A stretch of 64,000 bases of DNA, taken from contig OX597822.1 of the NCBI GenBank assembly GCA_951406725.2, positions 98,208,001-98,272,000 on the forward strand. The letters run 5' to 3'. This document shows positions 16,158 through 38,030 of the stretch, piece by piece. The translations under genes were made by a program, and so were the position numbers. Position 1 is the stretch's first letter. Every line of letters begins with the position of its first letter. This stretch comes from Octopus vulgaris. Lineage: Eukaryota. The notes beneath the pieces are model-generated. The model did not search any database. It saw only the letters and a program-made list of their open reading frames with translations, and was not told the origin of the DNA.

Positions 16158-16370
16158 CTTCTTTTAGTTGTTTCAGTCATTTCATTGCGGCCATAATGGA
16201 GCACCGCCTTAAAGGTTTTGTTTTAGTCAGGGAAATCGAACCCAGGACTTATTCTTCGTAATTCTATCGGATTCTTTTGCCAAACTAGTAAGTGGCGGGG
16301 TCGTAAACGCACCAACATCGGTTGTCAAGCGATAGTGGGAGGGAAGACAAACACAGACACACACAATATA
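16158..16370 (-). mobile_element. SINE family 1, 3' half only, running into the giant microsatellite
   Basis: GTTTCAGTCATTTCATTGCGGCCATAATGGAGCACCGCC ... GGTTGTCAAGCGATAG...GACAAACACAGACACAC, then repeats. Confidence 0.85.
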
Positions 16371-19116
16371 TATATATACACACATATATACACACATATA
16401 TATGCACACATATATATACACATATAGACACACATATACATACACACATATATATACACACACATATATACACACACATATATACACACACATATATATA
16501 CACATATATACACACATATATATATATATACACATATATATATATACACATATATATATATACACATATATATATATATACACACATATATATATACACA
16601 TATATATATATACACATATATATATATACACATATATATACATATATATATATACACATATATATACATATATATATATATCTATACACATATATATACA
16701 TATATATATATATCTATACACATATATATACATATATATATATCTATACACATATATATACATATATATATATATATACACATATATATACATATATATA
16801 TATATATACACATATATATACATATATATATATATACACATATATATACATATATATATATACACATATATATACATATATATATATATACACATATATA
16901 TACATATATATATATATACACATATATATACATATATATATATACATATATATATACATATATATATATATATATATATATATATATACATATATATATA
17001 TATATATATATATATACACATATATATATACACATATATATATATATACACATATATATACATATATATATCTATATACACATATATACATATATATATA
17101 TACACATATATATATATATATATATATATACACACATATATACATATATATATATACACACATATATACATACATATATATACATATATATATACACATA
17201 TATATATACATATATATACATATATATATATACATATATATATACACATATATATATACATATATATATATACACATATATATACACATATATATACACA
17301 TATATATATACACATATATATATACACATATATATATACACATATATATACACATATATATACACATATATATACACATATATACACATATATATACACA
17401 TATATATACATACATATATATATATATATATATATATATACATATACATATATATATATACATATATATATACATATATATATACACATATATATATACA
17501 CATATATATATACACATATATATATATATATATATATATATTTAAATTTATTATATAGAAATATTTATACAGGACTAGAACTGTTTCATTCAAGAGAAAT
17601 CTTCAGGAAGCTTCCTGAAGATTTCTCTTGAATGAAACAGTTCTAGTCCTGTAGAAGCTCCTTCTATATAATAAATTAATTTTACTCTGCTATGTATTGA
17701 GTACCTTATTTACTGTGGTTAACCCCGAATCAACCCGGGACCTACATATTACATATATACATATATACACACATATATATATATATATATATATATATAC
17801 ATATATATATATACATATATATATACATATATATATATACATATATATATACATATATATATATACATATATATATATAATAATATATATATATATATAT
17901 ATATATATATATATATACATATATATATACTATATATACATATATATATATAATATATATATATATATATATATAAACATATATATATACATATATATAT
18001 ATATATATACATAATATATATACATATATATATACATATATATATATATATATATATATATATATAATAATATATATATATATATATATATATATAATAT
18101 ATATATACATATATATATATATATATATATATATATATATATATATATATATATATATATATATATATATATATATATATACATATATATACATATATAT
18201 ATATATATATATATACATATATATATATATATATACATATATATACATATATATATATATATATATATATATATATATATATATATATATATATATATAT
18301 ATATATATATATATATATACATATACATATATATATACATATATATACATATATATATATACATATATATATACACATATATATATATATATATATATAT
18401 ATATATATATATATACATATATATATATATATATATATATATATATATAATATATATATATACATATATATATATACACATATATATACATACACATATA
18501 TATACATATATATACATACACATATATATACATATATATACATACACATATATATACATATATATATATATACACACATATATATATACACATATATATA
18601 CACACACATATATATATATATATATACACATATATATACATACATACATATATATATATATATATATTCACATATATATACATACATACATATATATACA
18701 CACATACATATACACACACATACATATACACACACATATATATATATATATATATATATATATACACAAATATATACATACATACATACATATATATATA
18801 CACATATATATACATACACATATATATATACATACATACATATATATACATACATACATATATATATACACATATATATACATACATACATACATATATA
18901 TATATACACATATATATACATACATACATACATATATATATATACACATATATATACATACATACATACATATATATATATATACACACATATATATACA
19001 TACATACATATACATACATACATACATATACATACATACATATACATACATACATACATATACATACATACATACATACATATATATATATATATATATA
19101 TATATATATATATATA
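16370..19116 (+). repeat. Compound (TA)n/(CA)/(CATA)n microsatellite field, interrupted at 17541-17745
   Basis: Direct reading. Confidence 0.97.
17545..17677. repeat. Perfect 86-bp palindrome (17568-17653) extending imperfectly to about 133 bp
   Basis: 43-nt arm TACAGG...CAGGAAG is followed directly by its exact reverse complement; outer arms AATTTATTATATAGAA / TTCTATATAATAAATT. Confidence 0.95.
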
Positions 19117-19117
19117 A

Positions 19118-20400
19118 GCTAGCAAATGCATCCGTCCTTTTGACGATTTAAGTTGCTTTGGGGGTATTTTTTACACCAAATAATTGAAATACCGAGAAGG
19201 TTTATGAGTAGCACGGCAATCTATATTTCCAATTAACCTAGGAATAGAAAAGCAAATTGAAGGCTAGTTATTGTGGAGATCGTTCCACTTGAATGAACAT
19301 AGGGCATATCAGTTTGCAAGCGATGCAAATTAGAACTACTGAAGTGATTTGTGACTAGATTACGGATAATGACTACAAAACATAATTGTTTTACACGAAA
19401 GCGAAATTTCTCGTCAGAATCAACCACATATATAGTGTAAAGATATTGAAGGAAGACGTTGAAACTTCCCTTCTGCGAGTTTATTTCATTCAACAACAAT
19501 GAGAGCTATTTTTCGGAGAGACGTATCATTGGTATGTTTAAAAATGGCAATATTATATCTACTTGAAAAAGCAGTGTTAAAAATATATATTTGCTATGTG
19601 CTTACAGCGTACGAACGCTCTGAAATTGACTTCAGGTGACGAAAATGACGACAGGAAGAGTCTGACTTCAGTTCACGAATACTGCTTTGAATCTTTAGCA
19701 GTTCGCAGTGAAAAAAATATCGCGTTCAAAATATCATAATGGATGGGTAAATAAGCATCCTTAAAGTGAAACAACGCATCGGTCGGTAAACAAATGTATC
19801 GACAAATAGAAGTGAGGAAAGGGTACATCACCTTCCAAGTAACTCATAAAAGGTAAAGGTAAGCTTTCCAAAGTTTGATGCAATTTAAATATGGAGATTA
19901 AGATTGATTAGTATTGGATAGTCATTTCGTACACTATTCCTAGTAAATTTAATCACAGTCGCAGGTGGACAGTCGCAATAAATAGACAAAAATCCTTTCA
20001 CTTTTATAATATTCTCTAACGAAGTAATAATAAACAATTGCAACATATAAATAAATGACAAACAAAAAAATGTGAAAACTGACTAAAAATATTCTTTAAT
20101 GCTAATATGCGACCATATTGATTCAAAAAGTATAGAGGACCCTACATAGAAAAACTATGAACGTACAACGAATTATAAAAAAAACTCGTGTAAACCACCG
20201 TTTTTCCCGGTTTGTCCATTTGCGTGGGAGCTCTGGACAAAATGTTATAGTGCACGACAATCCTTGGGACATAAGTAACGTGTGTGTGTGTAAAGTTTGG
20301 TAAAATCGTTTGAGAATTGTGGAAGTGTATGTGCTAGTCAAAGCACACACATACTGATATATATATATATATATATATATATATATATATATATATATAC
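19118..20400 (-). mobile_element. Probable older Helitron-like insertion(s) within TA repeats
   Basis: Reverse complement ends CGTC-AAAAG-GACG hairpin ...GCTAG at about 19119; the other end (20300-20400) resembles Helitron 5' ends merging into (TA)n. Confidence 0.4.
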
Positions 20401-20915
20401 AAAGGTTACTTTCTTAGATGCAGCACGGACTTTGTCAGTGAACAGGTCGCGGATTTTAGCGACGAAAATATTTTGACAAATTAAACTTAAATGTTGGAGT
20501 GAATCAAACGGCTTTTGTGTGTTTCTTAAATGGCTTATAAACACCTTCCACGCTGCAATTGTTTTCGTTTCACCACACGATCTCAGATCAAATTACTTGC
20601 TATGCGAGTACATCTCCGTAATATATATATATATATATATATATATATATATATATATATATTTATATACATATATATACATACATATATATATACATAC
20701 ATATATATACACATACATATATATACACATACATATATATACACATACATATATATACACATACATATATATACACATACATATATATACATACATACAT
20801 ATATATAAATACATATATATACATACATATATATATACATACATATATATATATACATACATATATATACATACATACATACATATATATACATACATAC
20901 ATACATATATATACA

Positions 20916-35074: not shown

Positions 35075-35150
35075 TGTAGCTCATTCAGCGGTGGTGCCCC
35101 AGCATGGCCGCGGCCTTCGGGCTAAAACATTTTTAAGGATTTAAGGATTT

Positions 35151-37872
35151 ATATATATACATACATATATATATACATACATATATACATACATATATAC
35201 ATACATATATATACACATATATATACATACATATATATATACATACATATATACATACATATATCCATACATACATATATACATACATATATACATACAT
35301 ACATACATACATACATATATACATATATACATACATATATACATATATACATACATATATACATATATATATATATATATATATATATATACATACATAT
35401 ATACATATATATATATATATATATATATATATATATACATACATACATATATATATATATATATACATATATATATACATACATACATACATATATACAT
35501 ACATACATATATACAAAAATACATATATATATATATATATATATACAAACATACATATATACAAAAATACATATATATATACATGTATATATACATGCAT
35601 GCATACATGTATATATGCATACATACATATATATACATACATACATATATATACATACATACATATATATACATACATACATACATACATACATACATAC
35701 ATATATATATACATACATACATATATATATATACACATGCATACATATATATATACATACATACATATATATATACACATGCATACATATATATATACAT
35801 ATATACATACATACATATATATACATACATACATATATATACACAAACATATATATATGCATACATATATATACACAAACATATATATATATATACATAC
35901 ATATATATACACAAACATATATATATACATACATATATATACACAAACATATATATATATATACATACATATATATACACAAACATATATATATATATAC
36001 ATACATATATATACACAAACATATATATATATACATACATATATATATATATACATACATATATATATATATATATACATACATACATATATATACATAC
36101 ATACATATATATACATACATATATATATATACATACATATATATATATACATACATATATATATATACATACATACATATATACATACATACATATATAT
36201 ATATATACATACATATATATATATATACATACATATATACATACATATATATATATATACATACATATATACATATATACATACATACATATATACATAC
36301 ATATATATATATACATACATATATATATATACATATATATATACATACATACATATATATATATACATACATACATATATATATATACATACATACATAT
36401 ATCTACATACATACATATATATATATACATACATATATATACATATATATATATATATACATACATATATATATATATATATATATATATATATATACAT
36501 ACATACATATATATATACATACATACATATATATATATACATACATACATATATATACATACATATATATATATACATACATATATATATATATATACAT
36601 ACATATATATATATACATACATACATATATATACATACATACATATATATATATATACATACATATATATATATATACATACATATATATATATACATAC
36701 ATACATATATATACATACATACATATATATATATACATACATATATATATATACATACATATATATATATACATACATATATATAATACATACATACATA
36801 TATATAGGTAAACAGTAAAAATAATTACAGACATGGACAAGAACATGAAACGCCACAGAGATGACACAAGAACCACAGGACGGGACATTCGAAGCCCTCA
36901 GTCATCAGTCAAGAACCAGATCATCTTAGCAATTTCGGCTGATTAATCTTGAGATTGCTCCGATATGGGCAGCCCGCCACGGGAAATCTAAGCCAAGTGC
37001 ATTAGATCCCCTGGAAGAAAGCTTCGAATGTATACAACACGAGGACGGAAAACGAACGAAGTACACGAACAAAAATACAGATATACATACATATATATAT
37101 ATACATACATATATATATACATACATATATATATATACATACATACATATATACATACATACATATATATATACATACATACATACATATATATATATAC
37201 ATACATATATATATATACATACATATATATATATACATACATATATATATATACATACATATATATATACATACATATATATATATACATACATACATAT
37301 ATACATACATACATACATATACATACATACATACATATATATATACATACATACATACATATATATATATACATACATATATATATATACATACATACAT
37401 ATATACATACATACATATATACATACATACATATATACATACATACATACATATATTTATATACATATATATACATACATATACATATTTATATACATAT
37501 ATATACATACATATACATATTTATATACATATATATACATACATATACATATTTATATACATATATATATATATATACATACATATATATATATATATAT
37601 ATATATATACATATATATATACATACATATACATATATATATATATATACATACATATACATATATATATACATATATATATATATACATACATATACAT
37701 ATATATATACATATATATATATATACATACATATACATATATATATACATATATATATATACATATATATATACATACATATATACAACATATATATACA
37801 TATATATATATACATATATATATATACATACATACATATATACAACATATATATATATATATATATATACAT
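35151..37872 (+). repeat. (TA)n/(CATA)n field, interrupted by a unique island at 36807-37080
   Basis: Direct reading. Confidence 0.97.
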
Positions 37873-37880
37873 CGACACAC

Positions 37881-38030
37881 AGGACGGGTTTCTTTTAGTT
37901 TCCGTCTACCAAATCCACTCATAAGGGTTTACTCTGCTCGAGGCTATATATATAGTAGAAGACGCTTGCCCCTGTTGCCACGCAAGGGGACTGAACTCGT
38001 AGCCTTGTGGTTGGGAACCTTGCTTTTTGC
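37881..38030 (-). mobile_element. SINE family 1, 5' half only, emerging from the giant microsatellite
   Basis: GACGGGTTTCTTTTAGTTTCCGTCTACCAAATCCACTCA...GAAGACGCTTGCCC...GGGACTGAACTCG...TGTGGTTG matches 2468-2590. Confidence 0.85.

Follow-up and report, generated by a model that had tools for sequence, protein, structure and literature searches.

A 21.5-kb nest of retroelements in Octopus vulgaris probably represents a general TA-microsatellite sink that happened to start inside a SINE, and the three CR1-like LINE families that it contains (A, B and C) integrate into (TA)n almost exclusively, as shown by their flanks. The nest occupies positions 16158-38050 of the window, the whole 64,000-nt stretch of DNA that was analysed. 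A sequence-only reading had proposed that the SINE, its partner LINEs and the microsatellite feed one another; the split SINE, its expanded tract and its repeated invasion are supported here, and the feedback system is not.

The nest is bracketed by complementary halves of an old-type, tRNA-type SINE, a 3′ half (16158-16362) and a 5′ half (37881-38050), both on the minus strand and both ending exactly at the internal tract. Between them lie 8.4 kb of arrays and 13.2 kb of ten dispersed repeats. TA/CA/CATA arrays (1179 and 1375 bp; 16366-19116), CA-rich like the side of the tract beside the 3′ half, are interrupted by a palindromic dispersed repeat (17545-17741) whose other copies are 88-96% alike and TA-flanked. 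An older 1.2-kb repeat at 19119-20352, possibly of the rolling-circle type, which it resembles, recurs in at least 39 further copies at 80-85% identity (40 scored among 993 candidates), and a 220-bp repeat at 20400-20620 matches its other copies at 87-95%. Both are dispersed, which disposes of the possibility, named earlier as a potential refutation, that 19.1-20.6 kb is unique DNA. The five LINEs that had been noted as CR1 were found, as CR1-like copies, between 20917 and 35150: a 3′ fragment of family C (20917-21208, plus strand, 97% to other copies), a 5′-truncated family A copy (21905-23233, minus strand, 93% to young copies), a second family A copy with part of ORF1 and with endonuclease and reverse transcriptase (RT) in two frames (25014-28802, plus strand, its 3′ 1.5 kb 99.3-99.4% identical to other copies), a 5′-truncated family B copy with RT (28883-30975, plus strand, 99.8-99.9%) and a family C copy truncated within ORF1 (31507-35150, plus strand, 99.5-99.9%). 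An 85-bp piece of a dispersed repeat lies at 24748-24832. CATA-rich arrays (1656 and 791 bp; 35151-37869) complete the nest, interrupted at 36808-37078 by an old, presumably Penelope-like dispersed repeat (70-81% to other copies). Every island is thus a dispersed repeat, with no unique DNA inside the nest, and between the two halves no further SINE half was seen except for a 45-bp match to a LINE tail. The nest is called intronic on account of a donor site, its one indication; the next exon of the GPCR was not found by motif within the window, nor among the matches listed.

Eleven TA/CATA arrays lie between the halves, and ten show a clear excess of C on the plus strand, the polarity of the SINE tract, the remaining one (47 bp) being uninformative. 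Polarity is therefore uniform in 10/10 informative arrays, including those around the minus-strand LINE. CA units are concentrated at the left of the nest, as they are in the SINE tract, and a CA-to-CATA gradient runs through it.

An APE-type endonuclease and an RT in ORF2 are expected of a CR1-clade LINE; accordingly, Exo_endo_phos and RVT_1 domains (Pfam) were identified in families A and C, and RVT_1 in the truncated family B. The endonuclease-RT frame of the longer family C copy is open over 1039 codons, and the ORF1 part of the longer family A copy has a weak match to a CCCH/Torus zinc finger. The best solved-structure relatives of the LINE ORF2 are L1 ORF2. Absence of an RNase H or a C-terminal zinc knuckle after the RT is a criterion of the CR1 clade, and neither gave a Pfam match in the ORF2 frames. 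A stem-loop at the 3′ end with short tandem repeats behind it, and frequent 5′ truncation, also fit that clade. Membership of the CR1 clade proper would require the RT to group with reference CR1 elements and not with L2, Crack, Daphne or Kiri; comparison of the endonuclease-RT returned only unnamed endonuclease-RT clusters, hence the label CR1-like. Family B is 39% identical to A and C in protein, the families being up to 61% apart, while the young copies within families are near-identical and probably active.

Targeting of TA arrays was investigated at 87 non-self loci, one of which was dropped because of Ns. A TA-type array adjoins the 3′ end at 81/86 loci (A, 25/29; B, 28/28; C, 28/29), and at least 10 bases of pure TA occur within 64 bp of the 3′ end at 77/86 loci, compared with 229/3980 random windows (5.8%). 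Of the visible 5′ ends, 28/34 adjoin an array. The reading that the LINE makes the array as its tail was rejected: both array polarities occur relative to LINE sense, as expected of a target, and polarity agrees across the LINE at 11/12 informative loci. Target duplications at LINE ends merge with the periodicity of the array, one possible 52-bp case (L016) being inconclusive. The cut in TA is presumably made by the endonuclease that the LINEs encode. In a passage of PMC4494074 a non-LTR retrotransposon is regarded as target-specific when one sequence type is found in more than 20% of its flanks, a level that all three families far exceed.

That the two halves are parts of one insertion is likely. 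Both carry the old-type diagnostic letters, diagnostics that are imperfect (92 intact copies gave 43 concordant, 5 discordant and 44 unclear), and their divergence from the old-type consensus, 16.7% for the 5′ half and 12.4% for the 3′ half, is reached by only 2/18 and 3/18 randomly sampled intact copies. Three other loci repeat the architecture. One has SINE halves around a 1232-bp array, a family B copy and a 418-bp array (L183+L083), another a 2.4-kb CR1-like copy within the SINE tract (L181), and the third a family A 3′ end within the tract (L142). Derivation of the halves from two different old SINEs, whether by recombination or deletion between TA tracts or by chance pairing around an independent array, seems unlikely to us. 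Orphan halves are common (ten 5′ and twelve 3′ against 21 intact SINEs in a 200-kb sample), and the halves at the nest differ somewhat in divergence; yet by our own estimate independence gives such a pair at most about 1% of the time (up to ~13% multiplied by about half that), and less still if both halves must be old. The single polarity and the gradient speak against an independent array, points with which recombination between same-strand tracts would be compatible. A target duplication is also missing, as had been noted before; the best word common to the outer SINE ends is 7 bp and out of register. The family rarely makes one (a duplication of at least 7 bp is absent in 31/35 young intact SINEs). 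No orthologous empty site or unsplit allele was seen among the contigs of four sequencing runs, none of which crosses the tract: compared with 14700-16400, the locus-specific contigs end at 16196 (run X1) and 16170 (run X13), and the runs of organism B have no long piece in the unique flank. The X1 contig does match the left junction of SINE and flank without a difference, which bears on the suspicion, prompted by kilobase TA arrays and by LINE copies that share more than 99% identity with others elsewhere, that the nest was misjoined in assembly. Complementary old halves at the two ends and a uniform polarity between them are not what a misjoin should produce, and the same design is present on other contigs, making such an artefact highly improbable.

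Intact SINEs with the short internal TA/TG tract that had been described were confirmed in the window at 2212-2630 (minus strand, young), 4495-4846 (minus strand, young, short at the 5′ end) and 58630-59052 (plus strand, with TA arrays at both outer sides). Beside another (TA)n, a degraded SINE 3′ half at 54990-55133 (minus strand) is real; it is not a second split SINE, because it has no minus-strand 5′ partner downstream within the window. Seven orphan halves were followed for 10 kb, of which one proved to be split by a CR1-like copy (L181) and six were without a clear partner. A tRNA-derived SINE has polymerase III A and B boxes in its head, followed by a non-coding body and a LINE-like tail, and occurs in many copies; A and B box-like motifs were recognised by eye in this head, in which ARAGORN detected no tRNA gene. 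We take this SINE to resemble octopus SINEs. Most of the young SINEs displayed are immediately preceded by TA at the 5′ end, and TA lies near the 3′ end in 25%; they may therefore well be mobilised by a related TA-cutting LINE.

A system in which the LINEs mobilise the SINE, and the SINE tract is a main source of LINE targets, was considered in the light of these data. The general idea that retroposon-made microsatellites become later targets was reportedly put forward by Nadir et al. in 1996. The same pair of neighbouring hairpins is formed by the SINE tail and by those of all three LINE families, with stems that have changed and are still paired. CR1-like copies lie within SINE tracts at four loci including the nest, and the SINE is frequent, at about 40 copies per 200 kb, supplying 21/160 ends of arrays with at least 16 bases of pure TA. 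The reported match between SINE and LINE 3′ ends is limited to some 45 nt (83% identity to family A) and to the double hairpin; it does not include the terminal repeat, which differs from those of A, B and C. TA near the 3′ end was counted in 29/118 SINEs against 77/86 LINEs, and since the SINE has neither strict TA targeting nor their terminal repeats, A, B and C are doubtful as its direct mobilisers. Nor are host arrays enriched for SINE tracts; they are rather depleted. An inward-facing SINE half adjoins the host array at only 1/73 evaluable LINE loci, compared with 20/149, 10/113 and 0/57 background array ends defined by pure-TA runs of 16, 24 and 40 bases (Fisher p of 0.003, 0.05 and 1.0, respectively), a comparison based on the best-scoring young LINE copies with 1.5-kb flanks and on a background of only 200 kb, and excluding eight loci, the largest nests, whose arrays run off the fetched DNA. 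Inserts can hide a SINE half in such a test, and at 6/73 loci an inward-facing half lies no more than 1 kb away; one of the six is a proven split SINE, two have no partner half in 5-6 kb, one has the wrong orientation and two are open. Nor does the tract serve a single partner lineage as a landing pad, because non-CR1 repeats use it as well; in a random sample one SINE (L174) is split by two TA-bounded non-CR1 inserts. SINEs supply a small share of LINE landing sites, so the feedback system is improbable; TA tracts have several sources, among which the SINE is a minor one for the A, B and C LINEs.

The explanation that we favour, a general TA sink, would begin with an old SINE that inserted with the 40-bp TA/TG tract usual for its family. 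That tract may have lengthened by slippage and received TA-preferring repeats that differ in kind and in age, ranging from about 20% divergence to near identity with active copies. The three CR1-like families would have come last, integrating into (TA)n after probable cleavage by their own enzyme. Longer arrays collect more insertions, and the site would thereby have grown to its present size. Nothing in the data needs a dedicated SINE-LINE loop. A tentative extension, less probable than the plain sink, is that LINE insertion itself lengthens (TA)n, as target-primed reverse transcription slips or creates long duplications, and so draws further insertions, SINE tracts being one seed. The median length of arrays at LINE 3′ ends is 372 bp, against 72 bp in random DNA; 48/81 reach at least 300 bp, against 2/80 in random DNA, and 15 of the 81 at least 1 kb. 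A second CR1-like 3′ end lies within the fetched stretch at 8/87 non-self loci, with none in 200 kb of random DNA. One young SINE (93-94% to consensus) already has a 1.65-kb array around one LINE. These data do not separate such growth from a simple preference for rare long arrays, and at L181 and L142 insertion occurred without array expansion.

Several known systems resemble parts of this one. Waldo, Dong and Kiri are microsatellite-specific non-LTR retrotransposons, and passages of two papers describe others: Kibi in (TC)n, Koshi in (TTC)n and crocodilian Tx1 families (PMC4494074), and Mino of the R1 clade in (AC)n (PMC3124438). As described there, these too are endonuclease-RT elements nearly confined to one simple repeat. 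Unlike them, A, B and C target (TA)n, are CR1-like and not Tx1 or R1 elements, comprise three diverged families with one target, and occupy host arrays that often extend for hundreds of bases to kilobases. The mollusc SINEs BivaV-SINE2, BivaCORE-SINE1 and Vhc_1, which passages of PMC4824008 and PMC4758252 link to CR1-1/CR1-14_CGi, are likewise tRNA-type, with tail stem-loops common to the CR1 3′ end and compensating changes; here, in contrast, the tails match over a short stretch and end in different repeats, no exact partner was found, and other elements invade the internal TA/TG tract. The same two papers name the octopus SINEs OK, OR1 and OR2. Like the Haliotis MESC SINE with its internal (CA)n, the SINE of the nest carries and spreads a microsatellite seed, although the passage on MESC reports expansion and not kilobase nests (PMC4758252). 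In snakes, CR1-L3 is described as seeding microsatellites at its own tail (PMC8303610), whereas here arrays lie on both sides with the polarity set by the host. The account of endogenous florendoviruses with a TA(n) insertion bias (PMC4241990) likewise makes pre-existing TA arrays insertion sinks; break repair is proposed there, while the elements described here carry their own endonuclease.

The three-way system would have been the more surprising claim, but the counts speak against it. Other clades are known to contain LINEs specific for microsatellites; young CR1-like families directed at (TA)n, TA-specific CR1 elements and SINE-hosted nests were not found in a literature search whose coverage leaves out most subscription journals and Repbase Reports. 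With their near-identical, probably active copies, the LINEs lend themselves to an assay of the endonuclease. The split SINE would be a rare record of how such a nest begins, here with a tract that grew from about 40 bp to 21.5 kb, datable by its halves and testable in relatives. More broadly, TA-targeting CR1-like families would account for local retroelement hotspots in this genome and for its very long TA arrays.

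The SINE halves lie at 16158-16362 (3′ half) and 37881-38050 (5′ half), both on the minus strand and both stopping at the internal TA/TG tract. Of the 21,509 bp separating them, arrays account for 8,354 bp and ten islands for 13,155 bp; five of the islands represent LINE copies: family A at 25014-28802 (+) and 21905-23233 (−), family B at 28883-30975 (+), and family C at 31507-35150 (+) and 20917-21208 (+). These LINEs encode an endonuclease and a reverse transcriptase, and the three families (protein likeness 74% between A and C, 39% for B) are termed CR1-like. Dispersed repeats make up the remaining five islands, and most of these have copies in other places that are flanked by TA; the nest contains no unique DNA, the stretch at 19.1-20.6 kb included. 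Island identities to copies elsewhere start at 70-85% (36.8 kb, 19.1 kb), include values of 93-97% and reach above 99%; they suggest that the nest was built up over a long period. Families A and C show weak CCCH/Torus zinc-finger matches in ORF1 (24771-25640 and 31500-32114, +), and longer family C copies, at loci L007 and L009, carry upstream a pyrimidine-rich 5′ leader of more than 1.2 kb ahead of ORF1.

The window belongs to contig C9 of a 2.8-Gb animal genome. The nest is probably intronic, because a rhodopsin-family GPCR (7-transmembrane receptor) exon encoding TM1-TM3 (40478-40948, −) terminates just ahead of the DRY tyrosine in a donor-like GT; the next exon was looked for and not found. 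A paralogue (G000:C10:27204602) is 54% alike, with an equally long open frame.

The observation in the sequence-only reading of complementary SINE halves enclosing five CR1-like LINEs was largely correct, and one split SINE is likely. Both halves carry old-type letters, although these diagnostics are imperfect (among 92 copies 43 were concordant, 5 discordant and 44 unclear). The halves diverge from the old-type consensus by 16.7% (144 sites) and 12.4% (193 sites), and only 2/18 and 3/18 intact SINEs from 20 fixed 10-kb stretches are equally diverged. Array polarity is uniform: C is on the plus strand in all ten informative arrays, the surroundings of the minus-strand LINE included, and CA units gather at the nest's left, matching the intact tract. 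The main alternative is that two SINE tracts recombined, giving the two halves; no target duplication is present at the split SINE's ends, but one of at least 7 bp is absent in 31 of 35 young intact copies too. None of the contigs of four runs checked at the locus spans the tract. SINE copies are ordinarily split, or lose a part, at the tract, as 22 orphan halves accompany 21 intact copies in 200 kb of background. The same arrangement is repeated elsewhere in the genome: a young SINE is interrupted by a 1232 bp array, a family B copy and a 418 bp array (L183+L083); the tract holds a CR1-like copy of 2.4 kb, with arrays of 35 and 33 bp at its two ends (L181), or a family A 3′ end (L142); and two non-CR1 inserts bounded by TA interrupt a SINE from a random sample (L174). 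A single origin of both halves is, in our judgement, quite probable. Other short inserts of 200-870 bp occupy the tract at L103, L121, L129, L131 and L136, and the window's first SINE copy contains a 36-bp tandem duplication (2263-2337).

Target preference was investigated with the best-scoring 40 copies of each LINE family, flanks being taken for 30 each; once the three self-matches and a locus containing Ns had been excluded, 86 best-scoring loci were left. A TA-type array was present at the LINE 3′ end in 81 of these, and a pure-TA stretch of 10 bases or longer lay within 64 bp in 77/86, compared with 229/3980 random windows. The LINE 5′ end, approximately located, adjoined an array in 28 of 34 loci, and polarity was the same on both sides in 11 of 12 informative loci; therefore the array is a target that was already there before insertion. 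We infer that TA is probably cut by the LINE endonuclease, because target-specific LINEs work in this way (PMC4494074). Two locus pairs with near-identical flanks or an identical truncation point (L014/L019 on contig C35, L042/L043 on C28) are probably segmental duplicates, so their insertions are not fully independent.

Host arrays had a median length of 372 bp versus 72 bp in background, and 48/81 reached at least 300 bp versus 2/80. A second CR1-like end lay nearby at 8 LINE loci, and none did in random DNA. The long arrays reflect either a strong preference for long arrays or lengthening by insertion itself; L083 is consistent with expansion, and L181 and L142 are explicable without it. 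Further nests with different CR1-like families side by side, in arrays whose length reaches more than 3 kb, occur at L021/L185, L026/L188, L035, L041/L189 and L063/L186, with a SINE host not demonstrated.

The proposed SINE-LINE feedback system, in which SINE tracts supply LINE targets and the LINEs spread the SINE, was not supported. Among 73 evaluable host arrays (8 that run off the fetched DNA and 5 loci lacking an array left out), an inward-facing SINE half directly adjoined one, compared with 20/149, 10/113 and 0/57 background array ends where the arrays were defined by 16, 24 and 40 bases of pure TA. With 1 kb of other inserts allowed, the figures were 6/73 versus 27/149, 14/113 and 2/57, the six loci comprising one proven split SINE, three without a fitting partner and two undecided. 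SINE tracts were thus not enriched among these host arrays relative to the 200 kb background, a count covering the youngest LINE copies with short flanks and excluding the largest arrays. As for mobilisation, the claimed match between SINE and LINE 3′ ends held for two adjacent hairpins, whose stems are altered yet paired, as in CR1-dependent mollusc SINEs (PMC4824008, PMC4758252), but not for the terminal repeats, which in the SINE are unlike those of A, B and C. TA lies near the 3′ end in 29/118 SINEs versus 77/86 best-scoring LINE loci, and it is doubtful that families A, B and C are the mobilisers. Since the SINE figure exceeds background and TA immediately precedes the 5′ end in most young SINEs shown, a fair guess is that the SINE was moved by a related LINE of looser TA preference. 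We take the SINE to resemble octopus tRNA-derived SINEs.

Elsewhere in the window, an RTE-like LINE copy with a reverse transcriptase (514-codon frame; 55461-57100, +) is flanked by TA runs and followed by a TA-bounded piece, presumably Penelope-like; short 3′ fragments of this LINE are present at other loci. A second abundant short repeat family with internal duplications, which we assume to be a Deu-type SINE, occurs at 828-1226, 11370-11566, 13505-13759, 38291-38722, 42029-42337, 45799-46048 and 54154-54347. Two further short dispersed families, each with copies 86-98% alike, lie at 5243-5621, 10896-11253, 39556-39920, 50701-51055 and 8402-8525, and at 2801-3322, 9946-10343 and 38887-39202. 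A Tc1-type transposase remnant (HTH_Tnp_Tc3_2; 12258-12884, −), a broken transposase-like frame without a Pfam match that we take to be hAT-like (61141-62042, +) and a minisatellite of 32 copies with a 30-bp period derived from TA/CA units (48771-49766) are also present.

Microsatellite-specific LINEs are included in the Tx1 and R1 clades (PMC4494074, PMC3124438), and most APE LINEs have relaxed specificity (PMC4120745, the available part of which leaves CCCH unmentioned); the portion of PMC4455052 available gives clade names only. TA arrays are a known sink in which other inserted DNA also accumulates (PMC4241990), and in snakes microsatellites are seeded by CR1-L3 (PMC8303610). A repeat annotation of Octopus vulgaris describes TE hotspots together with 13 CR1 families of recent activity, with target preference absent from its text from introduction to methods (PMC13282606). 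No report of a TA-specific CR1 was found in the literature searched, and Repbase entries may already record such elements. The main outcome of this analysis is a set of CR1-like families that are specific for TA microsatellites and whose host arrays are long.
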